From assembly GCA_963557965.1 (NCBI GenBank), contig CAUWEX010000004.1, forward strand, positions 649 through 64,648: DNA of 64,000 nt, in the 5' to 3' direction. The position numbers were made by a program, and so were the translations under genes. Positions within the stretch are counted from its first letter, which is position 1. Each line of letters begins with the position of its first letter. Positions 8,817 through 41,817 of the stretch are shown here, one piece after another. The DNA is from an uncultured Clostridia bacterium. GTDB lineage: Bacteria > Bacillota > Clostridia > TANB77 > CAG-508. The notes beneath the pieces were generated by a model that saw only the letters and a program-made list of their open reading frames with translations, did not search any database and was not told the DNA's origin.

Positions 8817-9092
8817 CTTGAACTTGTAACTAATACGTGCTATAATAAAAAACGTAAGTTAAGAGAAAACCAATTAGAAAGCAAAGTATATATATTAGAA
8901 GAAAAAAGAGAAAATGGTCGTGGCTGAAAACCATTTAAATAATATATAGAAATTTCACTTTTTAGGTCCTTTTTTGAAATCATAGTAGAAAAGGGCGGTT
9001 GTACCGTTAAAACTATAATGAGGTTAGTGCAAGCTAATAAAATTAGGTGGTACCACGGAAAAAAAGCCATTTCGTCCTAAGTTGAGGATGAG
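8817..9092 (+). promoter_or_regulatory. Phe-specific T-box leader with promoter and terminator, controlling pheST
   Basis: Promoter TTGAAC-17-TATAAT (8817-8845). AGAGA motif is present; candidate specifier UUC at 8944-8946 is followed by A. T-box sequence AATTAGGTGGTACCACGG at 9031-9048. Terminator aaagccatttcgtcc...ggatgagtggcttttt ends ~9092. Confidence 0.85.
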
Positions 9093-9135
9093 TGGCTTTT
9101 TAGTTTTATATAAAGAGATAGAGAGGAGAAGAAAG

Positions 9136-27917: not shown

Positions 27918-28001
27918 GCGGATGTGGCGGAATTGGTAGACGCGCTGGTCTTAGGAACCAGTGCCAACGGCGTGGGGGTTCAAGTCCCTTCATCCGCACC
28001 A
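27918..28001 (+). tRNA. tRNA-Leu (anticodon UAG), class II with long variable arm; integration target of the island
   Basis: Acceptor GCGGATG/CATCCGC, anticodon stem CTGGT/ACCAG with loop CTTAGGA, long variable arm, T-loop TTCAAGT, encoded CCA. Promoter TTGACA...TGcTAATAT lies upstream. Confidence 0.9.
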
Positions 28002-28181
28002 TAAGAAAAATCGATGTAAGTAGCTTGTATCTGAGGATACAGGCTACTTTAACGTTTGGTAACTAATAAATTTATTGTATAATTTCTAATATTTATTTTT
28101 CACTAGAGCCACAAGGGATTTCACGATTTTTAATTTTTATTAATTTTTTGTAGTAAAAACTGTTCACTCAACAAAAATTGA
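27989..28181 (+). repeat. attL-side direct repeat (tRNA 3' end plus ~180 bp downstream)
   Basis: ttcatccgcaccataagaaaaatcgatgtaa...cactcaacaaaaattga recurs at 41625-41817 with only a handful of substitutions. Confidence 0.9.
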
Positions 28182-28311
28182 CTATTTTGTACATGTAAAC
28201 TACAGAGTATAGTTGTTTGAAAAAACGTTGAGTGAAATCTCTGAAGTGCAGTAGAATAAATGATTTTAGCGGTTGGAGTTGTTGAGTGAACGTGTAATAT
28301 TATTTAATTTT

Positions 28312-29526
28312 TTATAATTCTTTTTCACTTTCTGCTAATTGTTTTGGCTGATTTAAAGCTAAATTTTCTCTTAAATAATATTGATTTACTTTATCAATTT
28401 CATTTTCCTTAAATTTATCAAAAACAGAAGTATATGTATTTAAAGTAATACTAATATCTTTATGCCCCATAAGTCTTTGAACTACAACGGGAGCCATACC
28501 GCTTTCAATACATCTTGTTCCGAAAGTATGTCTTAAACTATGAGTAGAAATATCAGTAATATTAAACTCTTTTTTCAATATTCTTTTTAGCTCATTATTA
28601 ACATTAGAACGTCTAACATATTTACAATTTAGAGGCTTAAATAACAACTTTTCATCATTGTTTATTTGGGTATTGGCAATTTGCATTTGCTCAACAATAT
28701 ATGGGTATAAAAAATCAGGAATAGGCAATATTCTTTTTCCAGCATATGTTTTAGTTTTATTACCCATTATAACATTTCCGATTTCATCGATTGATAAAGT
28801 TCTATGAACATTGATCTTTTTATGTTGCAAATCAATATCATGAGTAGATAGGGCAAGAGCTTCACCGACACGCAACCCCATATACATTTGAATTAAAAAT
28901 ACATTTCTGTATTTATATTTATCTACAGGCTTATTAATTAACCAATGTGTGAAGTTTTGTTGTTCTTCTACTGTGAGTGCTCGAACAATTTTATCTTCCT
29001 TACTACTTTGAGGTCTAATAACATTAAGCATAGGATTTCTCATTATATAACCTTTATCCATTGCTATTTTAAAAGCTTGGTTTAATTGTTGATAAGCTTT
29101 TTTTATCATAGAATTACTTAGGTTATCTTTTAGAGAAGTTAGGTATGCTTGTAATTCTTCTGAAGTGATATCAGATATATTTTTATTACCAAAAGATGTT
29201 TTTTCTAAATTTTGAATTGTAATAAGAACCCTACCGTATTGAGAAGCAGATATTTGATTAGTATCTCTTTTTAAGTTTAAATTTTGTTTAAGAAGTTCAC
29301 ACATAGGTATTCCATGGTGTTCGATATATAATGCGTTTCCTTTTTGATACATAATTGTACTTAAATATTTTTTTGCTTCTTCCTCTGTTTTAAAACTTTT
29401 GGTTCGTCTTACGGTTTTTCCTTTGTTTACATCATATTCATAAAATTGTGCTAACCAATTTTTTCTTTGCTTATTAAAATATATAGAACCTTCACTACTT
29501 CCTTTAATAGGCATATTATACACCAC
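28312..29526 (-). CDS. int: Tyrosine-type site-specific recombinase/integrase
   Basis: C-terminal catalytic region LRVGEALAL, HSLRHTFGTRCIESG and LMGHKDISITLNTYTS (R..HxxR..Y). Confidence 0.92.
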   Translation of the reverse strand: MVYNMPIKGSSEGSIYFNKQRKNWLAQFYEYDVNKGKTVRRTKSFKTEEEAKKYLSTIMYQKGNALYIEHHGIPMCELLKQNLNLKRDTNQISASQYGRVLITIQNLEKTSFGNKNISDITSEELQAYLTSLKDNLSNSMIKKAYQQLNQAFKIAMDKGYIMRNPMLNVIRPQSSKEDKIVRALTVEEQQNFTHWLINKPVDKYKYRNVFLIQMYMGLRVGEALALSTHDIDLQHKKINVHRTLSIDEIGNVIMGNKTKTYAGKRILPIPDFLYPYIVEQMQIANTQINNDEKLLFKPLNCKYVRRSNVNNELKRILKKEFNITDISTHSLRHTFGTRCIESGMAPVVVQRLMGHKDISITLNTYTSVFDKFKENEIDKVNQYYLRENLALNQPKQLAESEKEL

Positions 29527-29785
29527 CTTTTCTATTCATTTTCCAAAGTAGATATGCTGCTAAAGTTATAGTTTTTCTTTTGCCAATATTAATACTTGGA
29601 AAATCTTGTTGTTTAAATAAGTCGTATGCCTGGTTTATTCCAATATGTAAATCTTTTGAAACATCTTGAACAGATAACATAGCAAAAGGGTTAGTTACTT
29701 TACTTAAATAATTTATAATAATTTGCTTACTTAAATTTGTATTATCTTGTGTATCAATTATATTTAAATTGTGTGTATTATTCAT
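29516..29785 (-). CDS. xis: Excisionase-type HTH DNA-binding protein (Xis-like)
   Basis: MLSVQDVSKDLHIGINQAYDLFKQQDFPSINIGKRKTITLAAYLLW fits the excisionase/HTH_17 pattern. The gene overlaps the int start. Confidence 0.7.
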   Translation of the reverse strand: MNNTHNLNIIDTQDNTNLSKQIIINYLSKVTNPFAMLSVQDVSKDLHIGINQAYDLFKQQDFPSINIGKRKTITLAAYLLWKMNRKGGV

Positions 29786-30359
29786 TTCTATTATCTCCGT
29801 TTCTATTAGATTTTAATAAATTAGCTAATATTAGTTCCAAATTAGAAAGAACATTAATTAGGCTTATTTCAAAATTATGATTATTAATATTTTTAAAATA
29901 ATTTTCTCTACTTCGACTTTCTTCAAAATCTCTTTCATATACTGATGAGACTTTTTGATTATTAGCTTGAGAAATATACAAAGTAGCTGAAGGGGGAAGA
30001 GGACTTTTATTTATTAAGTCTTTAGTAAACCATATAATATCTTCTTGTGATAACGAATTAAATTCACGTTCTTGAGGGTCAATATTTACGAGTATGAGAT
30101 CTCCTCTAATACTTCTAAAAGGCAGCACAATATTAGCTTTTCTATATTTCATTAATTTACTGTTATTACAAATTATATAAGAACCTTCATAAGGGATAAT
30201 ATCAAGATTTCTTTTTACAATTGCTTTTTTTAGAGTAGATATATTTTTTATAATTTTTACATGTGGAGTTTGACCAACTTTTTTATATATAACTCTAACA
30301 GGAAAGCTATTACGCGATTTATTAAGAAGTCGTGTAGATATTTCTTTTTTATTCATCAC
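29778..30359 (-). CDS. Hypothetical protein, DUF3846-like N-terminal domain
   Basis: VRVIYKKVGQTPHVKII...IICNNSKLMKYRKANIVLP...IRGDLILVNID...SLSQEDI resembles the DUF3846 pattern seen on conjugative/mobilizable elements. This is recalled from memory, not searched. Confidence 0.4.
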   Translation of the reverse strand: MMNKKEISTRLLNKSRNSFPVRVIYKKVGQTPHVKIIKNISTLKKAIVKRNLDIIPYEGSYIICNNSKLMKYRKANIVLPFRSIRGDLILVNIDPQEREFNSLSQEDIIWFTKDLINKSPLPPSATLYISQANNQKVSSVYERDFEESRSRENYFKNINNHNFEISLINVLSNLELILANLLKSNRNGDNRNE

Positions 30360-30763
30360 ATTTTACCACCTTGTTGTATTTTATTAGCTTTATATAAAAG
30401 TTCTAAGTTATGTTTAAAATGAGCTATACCTTTTGAACGTAATTTGATAACTTGGTTTTTAGATAATTGTAAGTTTTTACATATATCATTTAGCCTAAGA
30501 TTTTCTATATAAGAGAGATATAGTACTTTTCTTTCGATAAGTGGAACGATTTTCATTGCTAAATAATAAGTTTCATTTGTAAAGATATTTTCTAAATGAT
30601 TGATATTAACATCTGCATTATTTACTTTTTCCATTGAATTTTTATAATAGTTATTTTCTATCATCTGTACAATTGCTTCTGTTTCGAGAACTGTTTCAAC
30701 AATTGAATTAAATTCTTTTCTATCTTTTGTTGGTTGTACGTTTTTACTTTTTTGATTTTTCAT
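30356..30763 (-). CDS. Sigma-70 region-4-like small regulator (Tn916 Orf7-like)
   Basis: LSYIENLRLNDICKNLQLSKNQVIKLRSKGIAHFK is a region-4 HTH. The position upstream of xis-int matches Tn916-family regulatory modules. Confidence 0.6.
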   Translation of the reverse strand: MKNQKSKNVQPTKDRKEFNSIVETVLETEAIVQMIENNYYKNSMEKVNNADVNINHLENIFTNETYYLAMKIVPLIERKVLYLSYIENLRLNDICKNLQLSKNQVIKLRSKGIAHFKHNLELLYKANKIQQGGKM

Positions 30764-31102
30764 TTTCTAAAACCTCTTTTCTAAAATTTAGATTTCTAGA
30801 AATCTTTTTGTTGTTCGAACTGGCTATATAATAAACTAAATAACTGCTAAAATGTATTTTTGTAAGGTTTTTCACTAAAATGTATGAATTTGTAAGGAGA
30901 AGTAAGAGTTTGTAAGAACATGTAAGAAAACAAAGAAAATGTAAAGACTGGAAAGGTGCTAAAACAAGCATGGTGCAGCGATTTTTTTTAATGTTTTACG
31001 ACAAAAAATAAAAAATGCCTAAAACCTAGTCTATAACTAAGTTCTAAGCATTTTGGCTGTTAATGATATTATATAAATATTTGAAAGTATTATTGATATA
31101 TT

Positions 31103-31822
31103 TTATATATTTTCAAAATCATATGTATCTGTAATATCAAGATACAATATATTAGTTTTATTTAAGGTTTCTTTTTCTACATCAGTAATTTTTAGTTTTT
31201 CTAATAATTCGTCTGTAAATGCTATATCATCTTTTGATAGAATACATTTTCTAATACTAGGCACATATTCGCCATTGGTACAATGGAAAGTTCCTAACAT
31301 TAATTTATTAGTACCATCAACTATATTTACTATAAGATGTGAAAGTTCAAAACGTAAGTTGTTTTCTTTGTGATTTTCAAAAACAAATGTTGCTATGTGG
31401 TGGTCCGCTTGTAAGTATCCTGATAGATAAATGAAGTCTGTTTTATAGTCTAAAAAATCTACTTTGCACATATCAGGCTTTTGTGTGAGTTTTAATTTGA
31501 AGCGTGCTTTTGCATATTTCTTTGATTTTGGGTAATATGCGATATAGTATAAATAAAGCATATCAGTTTCAAATGGGTTTATACTAGTTTCACTATTATT
31601 AATTTTTCTTTGACTATTAAAAAGTTCATATTCATAAATTCCTAATGTATCACATATTAGAGAAATGTGTTCAGCATTTGGAATAATTTCGCCATTTTCA
31701 TATCTAGCAATTGTAGCTGTAGTTTTTCCAATAGCCATTGCTAGATTTTCTTGACTAAGCCCTTTGAGCTTTCGATACTTTTTAATATTTTGACCAAAAT
31801 CTTTACTATTAAAACAAGACAT
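31103..31822 (-). CDS. XRE-family HTH transcriptional regulator with C-terminal uncharacterised domain
   Basis: N-terminal IKKYRKLKGLSQENLAMAIGKTTATIARYENGEIIP is a Cro/C1-type HTH. Confidence 0.85.
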   Translation of the reverse strand: MSCFNSKDFGQNIKKYRKLKGLSQENLAMAIGKTTATIARYENGEIIPNAEHISLICDTLGIYEYELFNSQRKINNSETSINPFETDMLYLYYIAYYPKSKKYAKARFKLKLTQKPDMCKVDFLDYKTDFIYLSGYLQADHHIATFVFENHKENNLRFELSHLIVNIVDGTNKLMLGTFHCTNGEYVPSIRKCILSKDDIAFTDELLEKLKITDVEKETLNKTNILYLDITDTYDFENI

Positions 31823-31888
31823 AAGATCACCTCATAAATAAGTTATAATAATATTATAACACAGGTAGACATAACATTACAATAAAAA

Positions 31889-31917
31889 TTGAAATATTTA
31901 CCATAATATGGTATAAT
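31889..31917 (+). promoter_or_regulatory. Near-consensus sigma-A promoter with extended -10 (TTGAAA-17-TGgTATAAT), divergent from the XRE regulator
   Basis: TTGAAA 31889-31894, 17-nt spacer ending in TGG, TATAAT 31912-31917. A hairpin terminator GGGAGAAA/TTTCTCCC at 32167-32186 lies ~255 nt downstream. Confidence 0.6.
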
Positions 31918-32323
31918 TAAATTACTATATAGTAAAAGGAATGGCAAAAGCTGTTTTACAAGTTGCAATACTTGTGTTCAATAATGATTTGAAGTTCAAG
32001 AATTGCAACTGCTCGTACACCTCGAGATATGCTAAACTTTGTTATCTTCTCTTAATCATAATTGGATTTTTGCTTATAGAATATAAGAGAGAGGAGAGTA
32101 ACAGATGGAACATGAATTTTGTATTGGTGGACGGAAGCCCAGGAGCTTAAGCCGTTCGACAGTAAAGGGAGAAATAATTTTCTCCCAATATTTTTGTGAT
32201 AAGTAATTAGATAAAATTTAATCAATTACTTGTTTTTTAGTAGGATATATAGTATAGTAGAATTTATAGGAAATGAGAATAAGCAGATGTGGTTTGCCTC
32301 CTACATAAGAGGAGGTGAGGCGT

Positions 32324-32446
32324 ATGGTAGAAGTACAAGTATTATTATTAATAATTAAATTACTTTTTGCTGGTCTAGTATCAGTAACTATCATTGCGTT
32401 TGCCTTGATTATAGCAATAGTTGTAATTATTAGCAAACAAAAATAA
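32324..32446 (+). CDS. Type I toxin-like hydrophobic peptide (40 aa), not in the ORF track
   Basis: MVEVQVLLLIIKLLFAGLVSVTIIAFALIIAIVVIISKQK. Strong SD AGGAGG (32310-32315) is paired with upstream CCTCCT (32297-32302) in a 6-bp hairpin. Promoter TTGTTT-17-TATAGT at 32230-32258. Confidence 0.5.
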   Translation: MVEVQVLLLIIKLLFAGLVSVTIIAFALIIAIVVIISKQK

Positions 32447-32524
32447 CCAATAAAAAAACACATCTGTAACTTGTGAAGTGCACCCAAAAAATTAGACAAA
32501 AAATCTAATTTTGGAGGTGCATTT

Positions 32525-33052
32525 TTGATGTCAAAAAAAATATATACAACAGACATTAAATTACAAGTAGTAAAATATGTCGTTGATGAGAAACATTCAA
32601 TAGGTGAAGCAGTTGAACATTTTAAAATTCCTTATCAATCAATGAGAATGTGGATAAAACACTACGAGCATATTGGTATAACGGGATTATCCATAAAAAA
32701 TGAAAAATATACTGGTGCTTTTAAGGTTTCTGTAGTAAAATATATGTATGAAAATAAATTATCTTTAGTTGCAACAGCAGTACATTTTTCAATACCAGAC
32801 CATACTATTGTAAGAGCTTGGAAAAAAATATATGATAATAAGGGACCTATGTATCTACTGCAAGAGCAACGAGGAAGGTCTAAAAAAAGTAAAATGAAAT
32901 CAAAAAAAGTGAAGAAGATTAAAGAGGAAAATAACTTAACAGAAAAAGAATTATTGAAAAGAATACAATATTTAGAAACGGAGAATGCTTACTTAAAAAA
33001 ATTGAATGCCTTAATTCAAGAGAAGGAAAAATCAAAGAAAGAGATAAAGTAA
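32525..33052 (+). CDS. IS3-family transposase OrfA (HTH plus leucine zipper)
   Basis: HTH N-terminus and a C-terminal heptad region LLKRIQYLETENAYLKKLNALIQEKE. Slippery heptamer A AAA AAA at 32995-33001. Confidence 0.9.
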   Translation: MMSKKIYTTDIKLQVVKYVVDEKHSIGEAVEHFKIPYQSMRMWIKHYEHIGITGLSIKNEKYTGAFKVSVVKYMYENKLSLVATAVHFSIPDHTIVRAWKKIYDNKGPMYLLQEQRGRSKKSKMKSKKVKKIKEENNLTEKELLKRIQYLETENAYLKKLNALIQEKEKSKKEIK

Positions 33053-33084
33053 AGACCATCAATGAATTAAGGCAAAAATATAAT

Positions 33085-33906
33085 TTGATGGTATTATTAA
33101 AAATTGCTGGAGTAACTAGAAGTACATTCTATTATCATTTGAATCGAATGAAAGAACCGGATAAATATAAAGAAATTAAAGAAGAAATAAAAACAATATT
33201 TTTCGAGAATAAAGGAAGATATGGATATAGAAGAATATTATTAGAATTAAGAAATAGAGGATTTAATATAAATCATAAAACAGTATTAAGGTTGATGAAA
33301 GAATTAGGTTTAAAGAGTATTCAAAGACCTAAAAGGAGATATAATTCATATAAAGGAACCATAGGAAAAATAGCTGACAATATTCTAAATAGGAATTTTA
33401 ATGCAGAAAAGCCTAATGAAAAATGGGTTACTGATGTAACAGAGTTTAAGATAAATAATGAAAAACTTTATTTATCACCTATTATTGATTTATTTAATGG
33501 AGAGGTAATAAGTTATAATCTTTCACGACATCCTGTATTTCAACAAGTAGTTGATATGATAGAAAAGGCATTTAAAAAAATACCTGACAATACAAACCTA
33601 ATCCTACATTCAGACCAAGGTTGGCAATATCAAATGAAACAATATCAGAATATGCTTCAAGAAAAAGGTGTTAGACAAAGTATGTCAAGAAAAGGAACTT
33701 GTTTAGATAATAGCTTAGCAGAGAATTTTTTTGGAATATTAAAATCAGAATTGTACTATGTTAAAGAAAAAGAGTACAATAGTGTAGAAGAATTAGAAAA
33801 AGATATAATAGAATATATAGAGTATTATAATAATAGGAGAATAAAGAGTAAACTAAAAGGAATGACTCCTGTTCAATACAGAATTCATTCCCAAAATGTT
33901 GCTTAA
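33085..33906 (+). CDS. IS3-family transposase OrfB (DDE/rve catalytic domain), expressed as an OrfAB -1 frameshift fusion
   Basis: WVTDVTEF...HSDQGWQY...DNSLAENFFGILKSE is the DDE(K) pattern. The -1 frame is open from the slippery site (KKIECLNSREGKIKERDKVKTINELRQKYNL) into this ORF. Confidence 0.9.
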   Translation: MMVLLKIAGVTRSTFYYHLNRMKEPDKYKEIKEEIKTIFFENKGRYGYRRILLELRNRGFNINHKTVLRLMKELGLKSIQRPKRRYNSYKGTIGKIADNILNRNFNAEKPNEKWVTDVTEFKINNEKLYLSPIIDLFNGEVISYNLSRHPVFQQVVDMIEKAFKKIPDNTNLILHSDQGWQYQMKQYQNMLQEKGVRQSMSRKGTCLDNSLAENFFGILKSELYYVKEKEYNSVEELEKDIIEYIEYYNNRRIKSKLKGMTPVQYRIHSQNVA

Positions 33907-33947
33907 TACTAAATCAAAAAAATGTCCAATTTTTTGGGTTCAGTACA

Positions 33948-34012
33948 CTTGGCGGTTCAATGTGTTTTTTTAACATATAACTGGCAAACCACTTTGTGGT
34001 TTCTCCATTTCC
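33948..34012 (-). ncRNA. Candidate antitoxin sRNA, convergent to the type I toxin, driven by a perfect consensus promoter
   Basis: Minus-strand TTGACA (34043-34048), 17-nt spacer, TATAAT (34020-34025). The predicted RNA ggaaauggagAAACCACaaaGUGGUUUgcc... runs toward the split terminator. GGAG-AAACCAC is complementary to GUGGUUUgcCUCC in the toxin 5' UTR (32288-32300). Confidence 0.35.
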
Positions 34013-34281
34013 TATCTTTATTATATACAACTTTTTTATTATTGTCAAATAATATTCAAATTATATTTTTGTGTTACGTAAAACGTAATATTTTGTAATT
34101 TTAATATATTGTTATGGTATTTTAACTAAATTATAAAAAATAATATAAAAATGAACCTAAAAATTTGCACAAGAGGCAAAAACTATTGCATCTTATGCAA
34201 ATTTATTAATTTTGAAAAATATATGTAAACCTGTTATATTCATAATACTAAAATATAGGTAAATTGAATATACTATAGGGG

Positions 34282-34638
34282 ATGTTAAAATTGGAAACAA
34301 CAATAGTAATTTATAATATAATAAGAAAACTAGGAATAATACCTACACTAAAGGGGAGTAAGTTATTAGTAAAAGCAATTGAAATTCTAATAGCTAATGA
34401 AAATGAATTTATTGTTTTTGAGGATTTATATAAAATAATAGCCATGCATTATAGCCACTCTAATAGTGTACAAATTAGAAATGCAATTAAATATGCAATA
34501 GATAATAGAGATGAAAACAAAGCGATTACAAATTTTGAAAAGATTTTTGGTTATGAATATAGCCCATATTATTTTACTAATAAAACTATAATAGAAGAAA
34601 TTGCAAGAATAATAAGAATAGGGGATATTCTTACTTAG
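34282..34638 (+). CDS. Stand-alone Spo0A C-terminal (DNA-binding effector) domain protein, no receiver domain
   Basis: IIRKLGIIPTLKGSKLLVKAIEILI...LYKIIAMHY...VQIRNAIKYAI...FEKIFGY...TNKTIIEEIARII follows the Spo0A_C pattern (GVP.HlKGy.YL..AI, LY..IA, RAIRHAI, LFGY, TNSEFIA). Confidence 0.7.
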   Translation: MLKLETTIVIYNIIRKLGIIPTLKGSKLLVKAIEILIANENEFIVFEDLYKIIAMHYSHSNSVQIRNAIKYAIDNRDENKAITNFEKIFGYEYSPYYFTNKTIIEEIARIIRIGDILT

Positions 34639-34751
34639 AATTTTTTATATAATGTACTAAAAAAGAAATAATCGAAAAATGTTGACAAATTTGAAAGGCT
34701 TGTATAAAATAAATATGTAAAAAAAAAGAAACAAAAGAGGATGAATAAAAA

Positions 34752-34880
34752 ATGAAAGAAACAACTGATGCAAGCCTTGTGGCTGTAAGAGAGAGAGAGA
34801 GAGAGAGCTATACTTTACTAAATCAAAGAATAGCTTTAAAAATAGATGTTTTAAAAAGGATAGCAATAGAACCTGAATAA
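34752..34880 (+). CDS. Hypothetical 42-aa ORF containing an (AG)10 microsatellite, with its own promoter and terminator
   Basis: Promoter TTGACA 34682-34687, 17-nt spacer, TAAAAT 34705-34710. RBS AGAGGA. MKETTDASLVAVRERERESYTLLNQRIALKIDVLKRIAIEPE. Terminator aacctgaataaatcaggttttt. Coding status is uncertain. Confidence 0.3.
   Translation: MKETTDASLVAVRERERESYTLLNQRIALKIDVLKRIAIEPE
34788..34807 (+). repeat. (AG)10 dinucleotide microsatellite
   Basis: agagagagagagagagagag read directly. It is the only long dinucleotide tract I noticed in the window. Confidence 0.95.
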
Positions 34881-35035
34881 ATCAGGTTTTTGTTGCTGTC
34901 TTTTTTCGTGAGAAAAAACAAGTTAGTGAGTAGCAATGCTAAAAAGTAGAGTTCAAGCTAAAACTTATTTTCTCATATAAAATAGTTATTAAATTTTTAA
35001 ATTTTAAAATATAAAAAAATAAAGGAGGAAAAAAC

Positions 35036-36265
35036 ATGAAAGAAAAATTAAAAGGAAGGAAAGGTATTACACTAATTGCGTTAGTAATAACACTAATCGT
35101 GTTATTAATTTTAGCGGGTGTATCTATAGCAATGCTAACAGGAGAAAATGGAATATTAACACAAGCAACAAGTGCAAAAGAAAAAACAGAAAAGGCGGGA
35201 ATAATAGAAAGGGCACAAACAGACTTATTAGGACAACAAGTAAAAACAACAGATGGACAAGTAACTAAACCAATGTTAAAGGCAGTACTGGATACATATT
35301 TTAGTGATGTACCTGAAGCAGATGCAATAGAGTTAAGTACAGAACTAACATCTAAAGAAGGAAATTATAAAATACAAGTATCAGAAATTTATAATGGAAC
35401 ATTTGGAACAGGGGAAAAGCCAACAGGAGGAATATCAAGTTCAGAAATAGCAAATGCAGCAGATAAAAGCGAATATTATGGAGCGATAGTAAATGGGTAT
35501 GAACTACCAAGTGGAACAAATACAGATGTAAAATGGAAAATATTTTACGCAGATGAAAGTAATATTTATTTAATAGCAGATAATTATGTAGAAAAAGTAA
35601 ATTTACCAAATAGTACAACAGAAGCAGGGGTAACGATAGAGGGAGCAAACCACAAGCCAAATGATGGAAATAGCAGTTATCCGAGAGCAGCATATTTTAG
35701 TAATATACTAGGAGATTATGCCGGTTCAGCAAGGATAACAGACAGAAAATTAAAAGCATTAAATAATAGCTATTTTAATGAAAATAATTTTACAAGTACA
35801 AATAATAATATGAAATCAGTAGCATATATGATGGATACAAACGCTTGGAACAGTAAATTTAAAGATGTAAATAATAAGGCAGAATATGTAATTGGTGGAC
35901 CAACAGTAGAAATGTTAATGAAATCATATAGTCAAAAACATGGAGTAGATTATCAAGCAAGGGCAGAAAATGCTACAGGATATAAAATAAGTAACGATGG
36001 AGGAACAAGCTGGGAATATTATTATTCAGGAATGTTAGATACAAGTGATAGCTTATATGTAATAAGCTCACAGAGCGATGCTTATGGAATGTGGGTGGCT
36101 AGTCCCTCTGCCGATGGCGCTGCCTATGTAATGAGTGTGCGCTGCAGCGGCGGTGTGATCTATAGCAGCTATATCAATGACTACTATGGGTTCCGTCCGC
36201 TAGTTTCTCTAAAATCTGATGTCCAACTTCAAAAAAATGAAGACGGAACATATACAATACTATAA
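35036..36265 (+). CDS. DGR target protein: pilin-like N-terminus plus C-terminal C-type-lectin-fold (DUF1566/FGE-like) variable domain
   Basis: MKEKLKGRKG-ITLIALVITLIVLLILAGVSIAML N-terminus. C-terminus WVASPSADGAAYVMSVRCSGGVIYSSYINDYYGFRPLVSL is encoded by the VR, which matches the TR. Confidence 0.9.
   Translation: MKEKLKGRKGITLIALVITLIVLLILAGVSIAMLTGENGILTQATSAKEKTEKAGIIERAQTDLLGQQVKTTDGQVTKPMLKAVLDTYFSDVPEADAIELSTELTSKEGNYKIQVSEIYNGTFGTGEKPTGGISSSEIANAADKSEYYGAIVNGYELPSGTNTDVKWKIFYADESNIYLIADNYVEKVNLPNSTTEAGVTIEGANHKPNDGNSSYPRAAYFSNILGDYAGSARITDRKLKALNNSYFNENNFTSTNNNMKSVAYMMDTNAWNSKFKDVNNKAEYVIGGPTVEMLMKSYSQKHGVDYQARAENATGYKISNDGGTSWEYYYSGMLDTSDSLYVISSQSDAYGMWVASPSADGAAYVMSVRCSGGVIYSSYINDYYGFRPLVSLKSDVQLQKNEDGTYTIL
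36092..36208 (+). other. DGR variable region (VR)
   Basis: 117 nt colinear with TR 37167-37283. There are 22 differences, every one at a TR adenine, plus one C/T difference near the 3' edge after the GC-rich gggttccgtccgctag block. Confidence 0.93.
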
Positions 36266-36338
36266 GATGGGCGAAAAAATAAAAAATAAAGAATAGTGGG
36301 AACAGGCCTAGTGTCTGTTGCCACTAAAGGGGTTATAA

Positions 36339-36788
36339 ATGAGTGTTATAAGTATGGCAAGAGATATAAAAAAGGTTCATCCAAATGATACTGTAATGTA
36401 TAAGGTGGGAAACTTTGTACAAGCATTTGGAAAGGATGCATATGTATTATCTTATATATTCGACTATAAATTGAGAAATACCAAAGATAATATCCAAACA
36501 TGCGGATTTCCTAAAAATGCTATACCAAAAGTTATGAGCAAATTAGAACAAAAGAAGGTTAATTATATCATTATAGATACAAGGAATAATTATGAAGTTG
36601 ATGAAACTTTTGACAATAAAAATTTAAATAGTTATGAAGAAACAAGTAAAAAAGCTCAAAAGTATATAAAAATAAAGAAAAGAATTCAAAAAATAGAAGA
36701 AGAGCTGGTTGCTAATATGGATAGTATAAAAATAATGGATAAGATAAGAAAGATAGAAGAAATCGTATATGAAAACAGAAAAGTTTAA
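36339..36788 (+). CDS. DGR accessory protein with MutS domain-I-like (mismatch-binding-like) fold, MSL type
   Basis: YKVGNFVQAFGKDAYVLSYIFDYKL...TCGFPKNAIPKVMSKLEQKKVNYIIID parallels MutS domain I (GDFYELFxxDA...GVP...Y...L...GxKVAIcEQ). The Phe-x-Glu motif reads F-V-Q. Coiled-coil tail. Confidence 0.6.
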   Translation: MSVISMARDIKKVHPNDTVMYKVGNFVQAFGKDAYVLSYIFDYKLRNTKDNIQTCGFPKNAIPKVMSKLEQKKVNYIIIDTRNNYEVDETFDNKNLNSYEETSKKAQKYIKIKKRIQKIEEELVANMDSIKIMDKIRKIEEIVYENRKV

Positions 36789-37116
36789 AGTAATCCAATT
36801 TATTAGGGAATTATTAATTATTATAGATAAAAACATGGATAATTTTCCTAAAAAAGATATCGAATTAAAAAATCGAATAAGAAGTAACACATATGACCTA
36901 TTAGAGATTGCATATGAAGCTAATAGCATAGAAGATGTTAATATAAAAAATCAGCTATTAAATAAAATGATAGCAAAAATAAAAGTAATAGATTTCTTAC
37001 TAAATTTAACATATGACAAACAAATTATAACGGAAAAGAAATATTATAAACTTGGAAACAAACTTGATGATATAATAAAATATATCACTGGCTGGAAAAA
37101 TGCACTTAAAAAATAG
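36769..37116 (+). CDS. avd: DGR accessory variability determinant (Avd; four-helix bundle, 23S rRNA IVS protein family)
   Basis: 115 aa; NMDNFPKKDIELKNRIRSNTYDLLEIAYEAN...KYYKLGNKLDDIIKYITGWKNAL fits the Avd pattern. Lies immediately upstream of the TR. Confidence 0.8.
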   Translation: MKTEKFKVIQFIRELLIIIDKNMDNFPKKDIELKNRIRSNTYDLLEIAYEANSIEDVNIKNQLLNKMIAKIKVIDFLLNLTYDKQIITEKKYYKLGNKLDDIIKYITGWKNALKK

Positions 37117-37166
37117 GGTATGGTTGAATGCGTGAAAGCTCATTGCGTTTGAGGTTCGTTTTTGTT

Positions 37167-37283
37167 TGGGTGGCTAGTCCCTCTGCCAATAACACTAACA
37201 ATGTAATGAATGTGAACTACAACGGCAATGTGAACAATAACAACTATAACAATAACAACAATGGGTTCCGTCCGCTAGCTTCT
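37167..37283 (+). other. DGR template region (TR), AAY-codon rich
   Basis: tgggtggctagtccctctgcc aat aac act aac aat gta atg aat gtg aac tac aac ggc aat gtg aac aat aac aac tat aac aat aac aac aat gggttccgtccgctagcttct. Same strand as the VR. Confidence 0.93.
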
Positions 37284-37446
37284 AAAAAACTGTGGTTATA
37301 TCTACTATGGTAGAATAAGAGAAGGTTTAGATAGAAACAAACCATGTCCATTAGTTAAGACATTAACTATAAAATATAAAATAGATAATTAAATTTGTTA
37401 GTAGGTATTATTATATTCGAAAGGGAACTTAATTTAGAACTGTTTT

Positions 37447-37476
37447 AAGTAGTACATTTGATTGTACTACTTTTTT
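37447..37476. terminator. Bidirectional hairpin terminator shared by the TR transcript (+) and the RT gene (-)
   Basis: aagtagtaca tttgat tgtactactt is a perfect 10-bp stem followed by a T run. The RT stop codon (37467-37469) lies inside the stem. Confidence 0.75.
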
Positions 37477-38432
37477 AACGTAAATAAATTATTTCTATTG
37501 GATAAACTTTGATAACACCTTAAGCTAGAAATAAAACTTCCAAGAGGAATTTTATTACTTTTATATAATTTATATCTACTCTTTAATTTTCGTTTGACAT
37601 TTCTATATCTAGCATATTGAAAATTAGAATTTCGACCTAAAAATAAAAAATTATTAGTATTTTTATATATCCTGGTTTTTATATTTAATTCTAGTTTTTC
37701 TTTTTCTAAAAAATTTGTGATTTCAGATAAGCAATATTTCAAATAGTCTTTTGAAGGATGAAACAACAAAAAATCGTCTTGGTAACGCACATAATATTTA
37801 ATCTTTAGAGTTTCTTTTATAAAATGGTCTAAATCGTTCAAATAAAATATAGCTAAAATTTGACTAGTCATAGAACCAATAAATAGACCTTCAGTATTGC
37901 TATCAATAATATCAAATACAATTTTGATTGCATCTTTATCTTTTATTCTTCTTAATAGTTTTTTCTTTAAAATATCATGATTAATATTAGAAAAAAATTT
38001 ACTAATATCACATTTTAGAATATAGTATGAACCATATTTAATTTTACATTTTTTATGAAAAGAAGCTGCTAATTCTAGGCCCTTACTAGTTCCCATATCT
38101 TTTCTACTAGCTACATTAACGTCAAGTAAACAAGGTAAAATTGCAGGATATAAAATGTATCTTGCTACTAAGTGATTAACAATTTTATCTTGTACATTTT
38201 GACTTACAATTAATCTTTTTTTGGGTTCGTAAATAATGAATTTATTATATGGTCCTATTTTATATTGTTTGTTTTTTAATATTTCATGAATTCGTGAGAT
38301 ATAAATTGATTTATATTCTTTTAAATTTTCTACTCTTCTTTCATTGCGTGTATTTTTGCAAACTTCATTATAAGCAGAAATAATATTATTAAAATTATAG
38401 ATATTAGAATATAAATTTCCTTTTCTTTTCAT
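37467..38432 (-). CDS. DGR reverse transcriptase
   Basis: RT motifs including LFIGSMTSQILAIFYLN (DGR-type [I/L]GxxxSQ) and YVRYQDDFLLF (YxDD). 321 aa. Adjacent to the TR but on the opposite strand. Confidence 0.9.
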   Translation of the reverse strand: MKRKGNLYSNIYNFNNIISAYNEVCKNTRNERRVENLKEYKSIYISRIHEILKNKQYKIGPYNKFIIYEPKKRLIVSQNVQDKIVNHLVARYILYPAILPCLLDVNVASRKDMGTSKGLELAASFHKKCKIKYGSYYILKCDISKFFSNINHDILKKKLLRRIKDKDAIKIVFDIIDSNTEGLFIGSMTSQILAIFYLNDLDHFIKETLKIKYYVRYQDDFLLFHPSKDYLKYCLSEITNFLEKEKLELNIKTRIYKNTNNFLFLGRNSNFQYARYRNVKRKLKSRYKLYKSNKIPLGSFISSLRCYQSLSNRNNLFTLKK

Positions 38433-38505
38433 ATGTAACTCCTATAGAACTAATTTACAACTTTAAATATATAACATTATATGTAAGATATTAACAGCTA
38501 ATATC

Positions 38506-38534
38506 ATTATAAGATAGTTAGATATAATATGCAA
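38506..38534 (-). promoter_or_regulatory. Sigma-A promoter for the RT gene (TTGCAT-17-TATAAT on the minus strand)
   Basis: Reverse complement reads cTTGCATattatatctaactatctTATAATg. AGGAG RBS precedes the RT ATG. Confidence 0.6.
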
Positions 38535-38641
38535 GACAAATGGCAAAAATTGTTAAACAATAAATTTACGATAATTAAAGAATGTTAAATAATTAATAAA
38601 ATTATAGTAATTTAACGTAAAAATGTGTTATAATAGTAGAA

Positions 38642-38734
38642 CCACATCCAATAACAAAAGCAGATTATGAGAATAATTCGAACCCTTTTGTACAAGAAGT
38701 AATGAATACGGGAATTGAACTAAAAGTAGCATGA
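38642..38734 (+). pseudogene. 3'-terminal remnant (31 codons) of a second MNT-type nucleotidyltransferase gene
   Basis: PHPITKADYENNSNPFVQEVMNTGIELKVA* parallels the C-terminus of the MNT at 41190-41516 (LPFSIEEYNEPKGIMEEILNTGIELKVA*). It is preceded directly by a copy of the promoter repeat (aaaatgtgttataat). Confidence 0.7.
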
Positions 38735-38775
38735 GAAACAAAAAAGACGACTAGCAATGCTAGCCATCTTTTTTG

Positions 38776-39705
38776 TTATCTATCGAAAGTTTTTATAAAA
38801 TTATCAACTAAAGATTTAAAAGTATGTATAGGAAAATTAAATAGGTGTTTTATAACTTCGAAAGTTTTATCAATATAATTCTTTAGGTTATGATTTTCCT
38901 GTTTTAAAGTAATATTTTCTTTTTGTAGATTTTCTACTTTATTTATAGCAAAATAGGCTTTGCTTAGTTGTAATTTTAATTTATTATTATTTTCAATTAA
39001 AGTTTGATTTTGCTTAAGTAATAAATGTGTATCTTGTGTAGGAATACATTGTTCTTGTTTATTTTGTAGTTCATATTTTATATTATCATAATTAGTAACT
39101 TGTTTTAATGTTTTTATTGGGATATGGACATTATCTTTAGTATTGCCGCGTTCTAAATCAAAACCATGTTCAATCATATAAGTATAAAAACTGTCTTGTA
39201 ATTTCCTATAACTGTCTTTGCCTTTCCAATATTGACTACAAGCAATTTTTTTAATAGGATTACCATTTTTATCTTTTGTATGAACAACTGGAACAAAAAC
39301 CAAGTGTAAATGTGGAGTGGTTTCATCCATGTGAACTTTGCTAGATAAAATATATTTTTCACCTAAATTTTTATAATTTGCAACAAAGTTATGAGCAGTT
39401 TGAAAATATCTTTTTGTTTCTTCTTCTCCAATACTTTTGAAAAAGTCGTTATCAGAAGTAATTATAAATTCACATACTACGTTTGTTGTTTTTATTATTC
39501 TTCCTTGTAAGTTATTTTCCTGTATTAATTTTTTTAGTGCATTTGAATATGTAGTGTTACACTGTTTAATTGAATAATTTTTTATTAAATTATTTTTACT
39601 AATATCTTTGTTTGAGTAATTAGTATTTTTTCTTTCGTTATGTTTATATAATCCTGCTAAATTATCTTTCTTATAATTAGCATTTCTAATAATAGCATAA
39701 CTCAT
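38776..39705 (-). CDS. mob: MobV-family (Pre/Mob) relaxase
   Basis: N-terminal MSYAIIRNANYKKDNLAGLYKHNERK and the HxDE...PHxH motif (VHMDETTPHLHLVFVPV). C-terminal coiled coil. Confidence 0.88.
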   Translation of the reverse strand: MSYAIIRNANYKKDNLAGLYKHNERKNTNYSNKDISKNNLIKNYSIKQCNTTYSNALKKLIQENNLQGRIIKTTNVVCEFIITSDNDFFKSIGEEETKRYFQTAHNFVANYKNLGEKYILSSKVHMDETTPHLHLVFVPVVHTKDKNGNPIKKIACSQYWKGKDSYRKLQDSFYTYMIEHGFDLERGNTKDNVHIPIKTLKQVTNYDNIKYELQNKQEQCIPTQDTHLLLKQNQTLIENNNKLKLQLSKAYFAINKVENLQKENITLKQENHNLKNYIDKTFEVIKHLFNFPIHTFKSLVDNFIKTFDR

Positions 39706-39808
39706 TTTTTTATTTTTCCTTTTCTATAGATTGCCTTCGAAGGCTTACTTAAATTAAAATACCCCATTTGATTTTCTTGAATAAACTTTTTTTAGTTTCT
39801 AACATACT

Positions 39809-39853
39809 AGAACGTCGCGGACGTTCTGTATGGTCAGGGAAAATACTTTTCCC
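39809..39853. promoter_or_regulatory. Candidate oriT: two adjacent GC-containing hairpins upstream of the relaxase gene
   Basis: AGAACGTC gcg GACGTTCT (39809-39827) and AGGGAAAA tac TTTTCCCT (39835-39853), in otherwise AT-rich DNA ~100 bp upstream of mob. Confidence 0.45.
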
Positions 39854-40007
39854 TAACAACCCTTTTTAGAAAGATAAATAATAAAATTCTTACGAAGTTT
39901 ATCAATTATCTTTCTTTGCACGATTAATATTTAATTTATTTCGCTTACGCTACATAAATAAAATATTTTAATCGTGTTATAAAAATATTCGCTTTTAAGC
40001 TCATATT

Positions 40008-40114
40008 TTTATAATTGATTTTGCAAGCTAAAGCTAGCAAAATTTGATAAGCATTTTCTTTGTGGTACGTAATTATTAATAATTTTTAGTAATTTATTTT
40101 AATTTTTTATAATT
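40008..40114 (+). repeat. Cassette-flanking repeat, copy R1 (longest), upstream of the ParE module
   Basis: tttataattgattttgcaagc...tttctttgtgg...attaataatttttagtaatttattttaattttttataatt. Shared with 40828-40903, partly with 41521-41565 and degenerately with 38586-38636. Confidence 0.8.
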
Positions 40115-40201
40115 ATTATTAATTTTTCAATAATAATAAAAAAATATGGCAATTTAAAATAAAAATGTGATATAATATATAACATAGGAGATGATGTTAT
40201 T

Positions 40202-40453
40202 ATGACAATGAAACAACAAGAATTGTATGATGTTATTGAAAGTTTACCAGAAGAACTTTCAATAAAAGCAATTGATTATATAGAATACCTAAAATTTACT
40301 TATTCATTTATTAAAGCTCCAAGCGACCTAATTGTAAAAGATGAAAAAGACTTATTAGTAAAACTACAAAAAGGTATAAAAGATACTGAAGAAGGGAAAG
40401 TATGTTCTGTTGAAGAAGCTTTTGCAGAAGTTAATGAAATCTTATTAGGTTAA
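40202..40453 (+). CDS. Type II antitoxin partner of ParE (family not assigned)
   Basis: 83-aa acidic protein immediately upstream of, and translationally adjacent to, the ParE-like toxin. Confidence 0.6.
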   Translation: MTMKQQELYDVIESLPEELSIKAIDYIEYLKFTYSFIKAPSDLIVKDEKDLLVKLQKGIKDTEEGKVCSVEEAFAEVNEILLG

Positions 40454-40470
40454 GATAGGAGGTTTTTATA

Positions 40471-40785
40471 TTGGACAAGTATAAAGTAGAATTATCAATA
40501 CAAGCAAAAAATGATTATAAAAGTATTATTCATTATATAAAGTATGAATTATTAGAACCTACTATTGCAGAAAAATATGCTAATCTAATAAGAAATGAGC
40601 TTACTTCTTTAGAATATCAACCTAGTAAATTTTCTATTATTGACCATAATGAGATTAAAAAATATCAGTTTAGAAAATTAGTTATGAAAAATTATATTGC
40701 GTTTTATCGTATTAATGATAAAGATAAGATAGTGAATGTTGAGAGAATTTTATATAATGCTAGTAATTGGATGGATAAATTATAA
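40471..40785 (+). CDS. parE: Type II toxin, ParE/RelE superfamily
   Basis: 104 aa; YKVELSIQAKNDYKSIIHYI...FRKLVMKNYIAFYRINDKDKIVNVERILYNASNW fits the ParE pattern. TTG start after AGGAGG. Confidence 0.75.
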   Translation: MDKYKVELSIQAKNDYKSIIHYIKYELLEPTIAEKYANLIRNELTSLEYQPSKFSIIDHNEIKKYQFRKLVMKNYIAFYRINDKDKIVNVERILYNASNWMDKL

Positions 40786-40827
40786 AAAATTTATGTTAAT
40801 TTTATAAAACTAAACAGTTAATTTAGC

Positions 40828-40903
40828 TTTATAATTGATTTTGCAAGCAATTTCTTTGTAGTTATTAATAATTTTTAGCAATTTATTTTAATTTTTTATA
40901 ATT
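40828..40903 (+). repeat. Cassette-flanking repeat, copy R2, abutting the truncated HEPN ORF
   Basis: tttataattgattttgcaagcaatttctttgtagttattaataatttttagcaatttattttaattttttataatt. It lacks the internal hairpin segment of R1. Confidence 0.8.
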
Positions 40904-40917
40904 TTTATCAATTTTTT

Positions 40918-41214
40918 ATGTGCCAACAAGCTATAGAAAAGTTAAGCAAAGGTATATACGTATATACTTTCGATAAAGAAGCACCATTTACTCATAATAT
41001 TAACGTTATTTTAAAAGATATCGATAAAGTTATAAATTCGATTGAGTATAAAAAATTTGAATCTTTATTTGCAACTTTAACATCATTTTATATAATAGGT
41101 AGATATGATGTATATAAACAAAAAATTTCAAAAGATTTAGATAATAAATCTAGCAAAGAATTATTAAATAAATCAAAGGAGGCGTTTGTATGGTTAAAGT
41201 CCCTTCAAACATAA
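40918..41214 (+). pseudogene. HEPN-domain protein (toxin of a HEPN/MNT pair), apparently N-terminally truncated at repeat R2 and lacking an RBS
   Basis: Begins CQQAIEKLSKGIYVY...THNINVIL...IIGRYDVY, i.e. mid-way through the usual first HEPN helices. No SD precedes the ATG (atcaattttttATG). Overlaps the MNT start. Confidence 0.55.
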
Positions 41215-41516
41215 TTAAATTAATTGAAAAATTTATTAAATTACTAAAAGAAGAAAATATAGTGGTTGAAAAAGTAATTCTATTTGGTTCTTATGCTAAG
41301 GGAACATATAGAGCAGATAGTGATATTGACTTGGCAATTGTCTCTCCTAACTTTAAGGAAGAAGATTGTATTGAAAATATGACATTTCTATTATGTAAGG
41401 CTAACATACTAAAGGCAGATATTCAAACTTTGCCTTTTAGTATAGAAGAATACAACGAACCTAAAGGGATAATGGAAGAAATTTTGAATACTGGAATAGA
41501 ACTTAAAGTTGCATAA
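41190..41516 (+). CDS. MNT-type nucleotidyltransferase (antitoxin of the HEPN/MNT type VII module)
   Basis: VILFGSYAKGTYRADSDIDLAIV is the GSxxxGxxxxxSDxD Pol-beta NTase motif. Confidence 0.85.
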   Translation: MVKVPSNIIKLIEKFIKLLKEENIVVEKVILFGSYAKGTYRADSDIDLAIVSPNFKEEDCIENMTFLLCKANILKADIQTLPFSIEEYNEPKGIMEEILNTGIELKVA

Positions 41517-41520
41517 GGCA

Positions 41521-41565
41521 ATATTAATTAGTATTAATTTTTAGTAATTTATTTTAACTTTTTTC
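41521..41565 (+). repeat. Cassette-flanking repeat, partial copy R3
   Basis: atattaattagtattaatttttagtaatttattttaactttttt matches the core of R1/R2. Confidence 0.7.
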
Positions 41566-41624
41566 GACAAAACGCTTAACTTAACAAGAATAGCTGAAAG
41601 TGTTAGAATAGGCGATATAGTTCA

Positions 41625-41817
41625 TTCATCCGCACCATAAGAAAAATCGATGTAAATAGCTTGTATCTAAGGATACAGGCTATTTTAACGTTTGGTAACT
41701 AATAAATTTATTATATAATTTAAAATATTTATTTTTCACTAGAGCCACAAAGGGTTTCACGATTTTTAATTTTTATTAATTTTTTGTAGTAAAAACTGTT
41801 CACTCAACAAAAATTGA
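41625..41817 (+). repeat. attR-side direct repeat (copy of the tRNA-Leu 3' end plus downstream 180 bp)
   Basis: Matches 27989-28181. Differences include a compensatory pair in the hairpin (aGtagc..gctaCt vs aAtagc..gctaTt). Confidence 0.9.

Follow-up and report, generated by a model that had tools for sequence, protein, structure and literature searches.

What was the small locus that now lies on both sides of an insertion sequence (IS) in this stretch of 64,000 nucleotides from an uncultured Clostridia bacterium (contig CAUWEX010000004.1, hereafter the window), and how can its host live with what the insertion has left in place? In this article, I will argue that the locus is probably a type I toxin-antitoxin-like unit of about 400 bp, laid out like par of Enterococcus faecalis, in which a short open reading frame (ORF) and a convergent small RNA (sRNA) gene share one terminator, and that an IS3-family element has split the unit in the loop of this terminator.

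The inserted element belongs to the IS3 family, having two ORFs, TG...CA ends and a 4-bp target duplication, and the identity that an earlier note had given it from the letters alone is upheld by the NF033516 score of OrfB and the rve and HTH domains listed in Table 1 (the element also holds an A7 run at 32995-33001). Once positions 32474-33947 and one CTTG are taken out, the flanks join in a 42-nt sequence, AAAAAAACACATCTGTAACTTGGCGGTTCAATGTGTTTTTTT, that is found uninterrupted in the loci L005, L006 and L077 from other gut metagenomes or metagenome-assembled genomes (MAGs) and in 11 further metagenome contigs; the reconstructed module as a whole aligns without a gap across the junction to locus L092 (91.5% identity over 366 nt) and likewise to L077, so that the ancestral junction proposed in that note exists in nature. 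The other landmarks it had listed, namely the ORF, the CCTCCT/AGGAGG pair, the 12-nt arms, the CTTG pair and the minus-strand consensus promoter, lie where it had put them, and only its leader motif GTGGTTTGCCTCC, which is present, had to be moved by one position, from 32288-32300 to 32289-32301. A metagenome scan with the exact rebuilt terminator found no empty allele of this very site among the uninterrupted copies, none of which shares the flanks of the window; the 64-kb window holds no second copy of the IS or of the module, and the IS is absent from all the homologous loci that were fetched. The event is, on this comparison, a transposition of the IS into the terminator loop with duplication of CTTG, and it would have taken the terminator and the 3' complementarity away from both transcripts.

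The uninterrupted relatives are numerous. They comprise 75 related protein clusters (65-95% identity, none of them functionally named) and 124 loci confirmed in a scan of one genome per species, of which 80, from 68 MAGs, were kept; the figures on anatomy given below rest on about 88 distinct loci. All 68 MAGs are labelled uncultured Clostridia, Clostridium or Clostridiaceae, the sources of the family being human, mouse, rabbit and goat gut, and 11 MAGs carry two or three loci each. Five loci (L009, L012, L050, L051 and L065) contain tandem copies 520-560 bp apart, in arrays of two or three modules. Contigs often end beside the module, as a repeat would lead one to expect. The arrays often combine two peptide subtypes, …KLLFAGLVS…SKQ and …IYILYYSLIG…LLCKSK, and their modules have identical terminator stems and different loops, which may set the specificity of each sRNA. 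Beyond the two -35 boxes conservation is lost at once, which makes the unit a promoter-to-promoter stretch of about 400 bp. Within it, the ORF measures 111, 114, 117, 120 or 123 nt, and the indels always fall in frame between an M-[IV]-E start and an SKQK end; of the three codon positions the second varies least (minority fractions 0.18, 0.09 and 0.13), and the synonymous share of codon differences peaks in the frame of the ORF (29% vs 19.5% and 5.9%), a pattern that fits selection for a hydrophobic peptide.

Another feature of the unit is its symmetry: the toxin mRNA (32266-32280) and the sRNA (34015-34001, minus strand) begin with the same ~15 nt, AUAGGAAAUG(G)AGAA, in all homologous loci, and the module is flanked by inverted homologous blocks of ~35 nt, possibly because both RNAs need a shared 5' determinant of stability or RNase action, or because the unit arose by duplication. 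One could also regard these inverted ends (ATAGGAAATG(G)AGAA...GTGGTTTGCC) as transposase sites of a non-coding repeat, akin to a miniature inverted-repeat transposable element (MITE), whose ORF and promoters are incidental, and the homologous starts of both RNAs and the many copies per genome in unrelated contexts would suit such an element; however, the true boundaries show neither terminal repeats nor target duplications, conservation spans both promoters as far as the -35 boxes, the frame survives all indels with substitutions of the coding type, and gene callers recovered the peptide in 75 clusters, which leaves a MITE hardly credible.

In the toxin-antitoxin-like reading, the sense half of the unit is a gene for a putative toxin, a single-helix peptide with about 30 hydrophobic residues in a row among its 40, no proline and a polar tail of four residues. 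Many homologous loci have a predicted sense promoter of the form TTGTTT/TAGACA-17-TATAGT/TAAAAT, 61-65 nt 5' of the ATG. The leader that follows is, in an alignment of 45 distinct leaders, near-invariant through CAGATGTGGTTTGCCTCC and AGGAGGTGAGGCGTATG, and the loop between these two blocks alone varies, from 5 to 13 nt. Here CCTCCT (32297-32302) precedes AGGAGG (32310-32315), the Shine-Dalgarno (SD) sequence, by 7 nt, and this CCTCCT-N7-AGGAGG arrangement occurs once in the window vs 0.00 expected from shuffles; the resulting hairpin folds with a z of -2.43 and leaves the SD unpaired with a probability of 0.005. Its stems are invariant, 99.2% of cells across the 45 leaders are paired, and all one-sided changes preserve pairing (G-U to A-U or G-C, C-G to U-G). 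A divergent subfamily of 11-12 loci also sequesters SD and AUG, with other sequences (ACCACUUU:GAGGUGGU; GUGUG with UAUAU). An ATG in the leader that resembles the start of an upstream ORF (MRISRCGLPPT) was rejected as such, its frame not being preserved across loci, and accounts for N-terminally extended gene calls.

Some leaders are altered on a larger scale. In L013, L031 and L062, which come from different MAGs, an insert of ~60 nt (…TAGATATAACGCTTACCTGAATAATA[CT]ACAAATTGCTTCGCAATTTGG[CT]AGCGTTA…), ~40-100 nt 5' of the ATG, parts the leader between GAAATGAGAATA and TAAGCAGATG and resembles a small mobile insert; L005 (1-147) and L030 (about 2890-3000), which are degenerate or rearranged, keep ORF, terminator and sRNA gene, and unrelated sequence replaces their leader. 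Just 5' of the toxin promoter in the window, at 32167-32186, lies an 8-bp GC-rich hairpin, GGGAGAAATAATTTTCTCCC, with T-rich tails on both strands, a candidate bidirectional terminator that would insulate the module from the XRE-gene region upstream.

The two halves of the unit meet in the terminator. Its arms, AAAAAAACACAT and ATGTGTTTTTTT, are exact reverse complements over 12 nt, and the reconstructed hairpin, with A and T runs on either side, has a folding energy of -14.2 kcal/mol (z -3.83). A hairpin lies 3' of the stop codon in 85 of the 85 loci scored, with compensatory variants GACACATC/GATGTGTC in 9 sequences (AU to GC) and ACGCATCT/AGATGCG in L073; the divergent subfamily uses a stem of its own, GCACCACAT/ATGTGGTG. 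At the centre of the loop the mRNA strand reads CUUG or UUUG, the two matching A's in the sRNA loop show conservation above 90%, and CUUG is the very tetranucleotide that the IS duplicated. Of the 85 loci, at least 70 show a U-tract past the hairpin on the minus strand, by a criterion that undercounts the divergent subfamily, and 59 show one on the plus strand.

Facing this terminator from the far side, TTGACA-17-TATAAT on the minus strand is the sole 12/12 consensus promoter in the window (0.07 expected). A convergent promoter with at most two mismatches is present in 87 of 88 distinct loci and perfect in 29, its -10 box ending 88-104 nt past the stop, and it is nearer to consensus than the sense promoter across loci. 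The lone exception, L020 (3001-3330), is a degenerate copy, in which an opposite-strand tRNA gene stands in place of the sRNA promoter and the leader is missing. Another candidate for the antitoxin promoter, TTGCTA-17-TATAAT with an upstream TG inside the ORF (32436-32408, minus strand), was rejected: only 17 of 76 distinct ORFs score 10/12 at this site, which is probably a by-product of AT-rich codons. The predicted sRNA, of ~85-90 nt, is conserved in an alignment of 81 distinct sequences; reconstructed, it forms two hairpins (AAACCAC/GUGGUUU at the 5' end, then the terminator) with -23.6 kcal/mol and a z of -3.24, and none of 200 shuffles was as stable.

Much of this had been anticipated in the earlier note. 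The burial of the SD by an upstream anti-SD holds for the family, as does the convergent promoter, which the uninterrupted homologues keep at the same distance from the stop, and the folding of the reconstructed terminator agrees with what had been proposed. The refuting condition named in the note, that uninterrupted homologues would lack this promoter and the complementarity, was examined, and the outcome speaks for the note. The shared terminator stands as a hairpin in every locus scored and as a clearly bidirectional one in only ~70% of them, and the ~75 nt once predicted for the sRNA falls short of the length given above.

Table 1. Positions of the features discussed, numbered from the first letter of the window.
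Feature	Positions	Strand	Details
Predicted toxin promoter	32230-32258	+	TTGTTT (32230-32235)-17 nt-TATAGT (32253-32258); weaker than the sRNA promoter; read from the sequence
Toxin mRNA leader	32266-32323	+	Begins ATAGGAAATGAG; holds strand L, GCAGATGTGGTTTGCCTCCT (32283-32302)
SD-burying hairpin	32290-32323	+	Core CCTCCT with AGGAGG; predicted helix reaches AU of the start codon
40-codon ORF, putative toxin	32324-32446	+	Encodes MVEVQVLLLIIKLLFAGLVSVTIIAFALIIAIVVIISKQK, ending SKQK; single-helix, hydrophobic
Left half of shared terminator	32452-32473		5' arm AAAAAAACACAT (32452-32463) and half of the loop; ends CTTG
Right half of shared terminator	33952-33971		Rest of the loop and 3' arm ATGTGTTTTTTT (33960-33971)
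Convergent sRNA gene, promoter-proximal part	33952-34015	-	5' AUAGGAAAUGGAGAAACCACAAAGUGGUUUGCC...; before insertion would have run on through 32473 to ~32449
sRNA stem-loop 1	33983-34006	-	5' arm GGAGAAACCAC (complement of + 33996-34006); 3' arm GUGGUUUGCC (complement of 33983-33992)
sRNA promoter	34020-34048	-	TTGACA (34048-34043)-17-TATAAT (34025-34020); faces the terminator
IS3-family insertion sequence	32474-33947	+	1,474 bp; TG...CA inverted-repeat ends; Pfam HTH_28, HTH_Tnp_1, rve, rve_2, HTH_21
OrfA	32525-33052	+	Pfam HTH_28, HTH_Tnp_1
OrfB	33085-33906	+	-1 frame; Pfam rve; NF033516 (IS3 family) 336.6 bits, cut-off 160
CTTG target-site duplication, 4 bp	32470-32473 (left), 33948-33951 (right)		Flanks the IS; single CTTG in uninterrupted loci
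Integrative mobilizable element carrying the module	27989-41655		13.6 kb; bounded by the 31-bp direct repeat
31-bp att-like direct repeat	27989-28019, 41625-41655		First copy is the 3' end of tRNA-Leu
Tyrosine integrase	28312-29526		Inside the integrative mobilizable element
Mob_Pre/MobV relaxase	38776-39705		Inside the integrative mobilizable element

How would such a unit work? From the letters alone I infer transcription, toxicity, antitoxin action and all the pairing steps, and the anatomy and its conservation across the family argue strongly for toxin-antitoxin function. The weak promoter would yield an mRNA of ~230 nt for a 40-residue membrane peptide, the putative toxin, with a leader that would fold back over SD and start codon, so that the message would be made in a closed form. 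The convergent promoter, of consensus strength, would yield an sRNA of ~85-90 nt ending at the same hairpin terminator, and because the terminator is shared the two RNAs would be perfectly complementary over ~40-50 nt at their 3' ends. The sRNA would pair with the terminator region of the mRNA, beginning loop to loop at the conserved CUUG/CAAG, and the outcome would be cleavage or decay of the message, or else a stable inert complex. The perfect 3' duplex over the terminator region is predicted at 52 bp and -81.8 kcal/mol, which makes it the more probable main interaction than any contact at the 5' end. A second, weaker contact is possible between the 5' hairpin arm of the sRNA, GGAGAAACCAC, and the leader strand beside the SD hairpin, where the leader motif is matched by a partial direct repeat, GTGGTTTCTCC, at 33996-34006; RNAduplex pairs mRNA UGUGGUUU-G-CC-UCCUA with sRNA UAGGA-aau-GG-ag-AAACCACA (8+2+5 bp, -19.8 kcal/mol). 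The same strand of the leader could instead pair with the 5' arm of the terminator, as a 5'-3' fold-back.

A number of results weigh against this reading. With no plus-strand U-tract in ~30% of loci, read-through of the toxin mRNA may be frequent. Rfam has no match at gathering score in the window and nothing above noise in the intact locus L077 (E at least 0.48), and RNAalifold could derive no consensus structure from the MAFFT alignment of the sRNA, because loop lengths vary and the subfamily is misaligned; a structure specified by hand was scored instead and the sequences were folded one by one. The stems vary so little that few pairs covary on both sides. Searched alone, the peptide hits no Pfam family, 26 members taken at E values up to 10 hit no toxin family, and NCBIfam has no type I toxin family for it. 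The 5' duplex averages -20.1 kcal/mol in the main family vs -15.4 for shuffles (z -1.5); both of its partners are locked in stable hairpins, and once these are allowed for, cofolding gains -0.7 kcal/mol for the window copy and no more than -4.8 for other loci, with contacts that shift between loci. Finally, the host tolerates an intact toxin gene whose antitoxin overlap is broken, and a harmless peptide would give the same picture.

The figures on the 5' contact bear on a rival within the same architecture, namely that silencing is achieved mainly by a par-like pairing of sRNA GGAG-AAACCAC with the leader at GUGGUUUgcCUCC, which would block translation. The complementarity claimed in the earlier note is real, reaches a little further than was claimed and is conserved in sequence, with AAACCAC kept in the sRNA 5' arm in 61/70 and GTGGTTTGCCTCC in the leader in 60/67 of the main family, and since the arm's own partner GUGGUUU is kept in only 48/70, the arm appears to be constrained by more than the sRNA hairpin; in addition, regulation of par requires its 5' repeats (PMC7472228). 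However, the energy is unexceptional, only 8 of 68 loci being beaten by at most 1 of 100 shuffles, the divergent subfamily shows no pairing signal over shuffles, and in 20 of 70 sRNAs other bases take the place of GGAG, with no change in the leader CUCC. Also, the target is the anti-SD strand, 8-20 nt 5' of the SD, and not the SD or AUG; as this is the strand that buries them, par-like occlusion of the ribosome-binding site does not follow directly, and pairing here would tend to free that site rather than cover it. I consider silencing mainly through this contact unlikely and the contact itself possible, perhaps as a docking or strand-swap step.

Taken to its end, the same geometry would make the sRNA an activator, an anti-antisense RNA that pairs with the anti-SD strand, opens the SD hairpin and turns peptide synthesis on. 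The sRNA 5' arm does compete for the strand that sequesters SD and AUG, with Watson-Crick pairs replacing G-U-rich ones, but the predicted net gain is negligible once both hairpins are counted and the perfect 3' duplex would dominate. I know of no precedent for an activating sRNA among type I loci, for which no specific search was made, and think this reading very improbable.

More telling for the question of tolerance is the fold-back. The leader strand is composed of copies of both 3' arms of the sRNA, CAGAUGUG being that of the terminator and GUGGUUUGCC that of stem-loop 1, and is therefore complementary to the 5' arm of the mRNA's own terminator, GCAGATGTG (32283-32291) matching CACATCTGT (32459-32467). 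In 71 of 86 loci scored (~73 of them of the main family) leader and arm are exactly complementary over at least 8 nt, vs 2.7% of shuffles, and in L023 a one-base insertion occurs on both sides in matching form, GCAGAATGTG and CACATTCTGC. Folded intact, the mRNA is almost as stable with the fold-back (-57.7 kcal/mol) as with the terminator formed (-60.0 kcal/mol), and in the minimum-free-energy fold of the IS-disrupted transcript, whatever length of IS is appended, the leader pairs with the orphaned 5' arm and the SD is buried (probability unpaired 0.005). The partner segments being CAGAUGUG and CACAUCUG, loss of the 3' arm would leave the mRNA closed unless CACAUCUG were altered. The fold-back is thus predicted to keep the IS-disrupted message closed, and this could be one reason why an intact toxin gene without antisense overlap is tolerated. 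One may go further and suppose that the module joins a par-like convergent sRNA and shared terminator to a fold-back switch of the hok/AapA1 kind, a combination unseen before, in which the leader strand GCAGAUGUGGUUUGCCUCCU, with its copies of both sRNA 3' arms, alternates between SD/AUG, terminator 5' arm and sRNA 5' arm, translation depends on whether the mRNA 3' end is intact, processed, bound by the sRNA or truncated by the IS, and the IS allele is a natural mutant trapped in the fold-back; I offer this synthesis tentatively, as the bolder and rather doubtful extension of the model.

Could the peptide instead be a small membrane protein of the ordinary kind, with a cis-antisense RNA to tune its expression, and not part of an addiction or stress module? 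The lack of any match to a toxin family, the very short charged tail, the tolerated IS-disrupted copy with intact ORF and promoter and the absence of copies from the plasmid and phage collections searched would all be in keeping with such a protein. Against it stand the multiple copies and tandem amplification, the self-contained promoter-to-promoter unit in unrelated genomic contexts, the sequestered SD and AUG, an antisense promoter that outranks the sense promoter in strength, and the carriage of the window copy on a mobilizable element, which together are hallmarks of type I toxin-antitoxin systems (PMC2887945, PMC6563280). On balance, I find an ordinary membrane protein improbable and retain the toxin-antitoxin-like unit.

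The collections in question were PLSDB plasmids and INPHARED phages, in which megablast with both flanks gave 0 matches and tblastn with the peptide also 0 (the low-complexity filter may hide weak ones), and a scan of IMG/VR with the peptide alignment gave no confirmed copy; most members of the family appear to be chromosomal. A PDB sequence search with the peptide profile found no relative, a literature search found no paper that prints the conserved peptide motifs, and neither the reviews of clostridial type I systems nor T1TAdb list such a family (PMC6563280, PMC8594479). It is best filed as an undescribed, new family within the kind 'type I toxin-antitoxin with convergent sRNA and shared terminator'.

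In the window, the module travels with company. The integrative mobilizable element of Table 1 also carries genes for DUF3846, sigma-70 region 4-like, XRE regulator and Spo0A_C-like proteins, housekeeping genes (TrmA-like, Era, RecO) restart beyond 41.9 kb, and a stabilising or addiction role of the module on this element is plausible. The element further contains a diversity-generating retroelement (35036-38432), whose candidate variable region (36092-36214) lies at the 3' end of a gene for a 409-residue protein with an N-terminal methylation (pilin-like) motif and is 80% identical to the template repeat (37167-37289), all mismatches falling at template adenines; its bAvd gene lies at 36769-37116 and its reverse transcriptase at 37467-38432 on the opposite strand, an unusual arrangement. 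Elsewhere in the window and unrelated to the module, a T-box leader (8864-9082, Rfam RF00230, 112.5 bits) lies 5' of an ORF at 9082-10155.

Should the peptide prove toxic, the family would be a type I toxin-antitoxin family new to Pfam, NCBIfam and Rfam. Its members are widespread and amplified in uncultured Clostridia of low GC content from the gut of humans, mice, rabbits and ruminants, organisms in which such small genes routinely escape annotation. The family would also extend the par-type layout beyond Fst toxins and so bear on the question whether this layout evolved more than once. The ~90 natural variants, including the divergent subfamily and an IS knock-out of the terminator with the toxin gene intact, form a mutational series that can be used to test how 3'-end structure, leader folding and antisense pairing cooperate; the most original aspects are the leader/terminator fold-back and this natural IS 'mutant'. 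Modules of Clostridioides difficile have already been put to use for counter-selection or stabilisation, and the module described here could likewise serve as such a cassette for Clostridia.

How, then, does the module compare with known systems? The mRNAs of hok and aapA1 are locked closed by 5'-3' fold-back, and the complementarity between leader and 3' end found here could do the same in the manner of hok/sok and aapA1/IsoA1, but the predicted fold-back competes with a terminator hairpin, and gene layout and host phylum differ. In Staphylococcus aureus, SprA1AS pairs directly with the ribosome-binding site and start codon, whereas the candidate contact here is with the anti-SD strand, and there is no Rfam or sequence relationship between the two. 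What the module does have in common with SprA1/SprA1AS (the PepA1 system) is an antisense RNA on the 3' side that overlaps the 3' untranslated region only and has a separate 5' domain for a second contact (PMC8594479).

Closer in general plan are bsrG/SR4 and txpA/RatA of Bacillus subtilis, also from a Firmicute, where the antisense RNA is convergent and overlaps at the 3' end, the toxin is a single helix of ~38-59 residues, the location is prophage-like or mobile and the SD is partly buried in mRNA structure (PMC3834814). Their antisense RNAs overlap the 3' end of the ORF by ~75-120 nt, whereas here the overlap would cover the terminator only unless there is read-through; still, a 3' duplex as the main contact recalls 3'-overlapping Firmicute antitoxins such as SR4 (PMC3834814). 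An Rfam match to BsrG (12 bits, E 1.6, against a gathering score of 55) was discarded as noise. The C. difficile modules (CD2517.1-RCd8, CD0956.2-RCd10 and others) share clostridial hosts, convergent overlapping genes, mobility and multiple copies with the one described here (PMC6563280, PMC7699646) and are set apart, by their descriptions, through toxins of 50-53 residues with lysine-rich tails and long RNA overlaps.

The nearest likeness is to par (Fst/RNA II of E. faecalis pAD1, and the chromosomal par-like loci), which consists of convergent RNAs with a shared terminator, an SD-sequestering leader, direct repeats and an RNA II that covers the initiation region (PMC7472228). Both have convergent promoters, a small antisense RNA without ORF overlap, a shared intrinsic terminator that gives complementary 3' stem-loops, a YUNR-type motif (CUUG) in the terminator loop of the toxin mRNA, a short direct repeat transcribed in opposite directions (here GTGGTTT..CTCC), a leader whose intramolecular hairpin hides the SD, and carriage on a mobile element (PMC7472228). 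In contrast to par, the repeat-derived 5' complementarity here falls on the anti-SD strand 5' of the SD and not on the initiation region, the sRNA is longer than the ~40-65 nt of RNA II and has a 5' hairpin with a copy of the leader as its 3' arm, there is a further complementarity between leader and terminator 5' arm, and the plus-strand U-tract is not universal. Moreover, the 40-residue peptide lacks the PXXXG motif (as defined in PMC7472228), and neither Pfam nor NCBIfam has an Fst or other curated toxin model that it matches, so that of the Fst-style par locus proposed in the earlier note the architecture stands and the peptide is not detectably of the Fst family; the unit that the IS has split is par-type in its layout rather than an Fst-family member.

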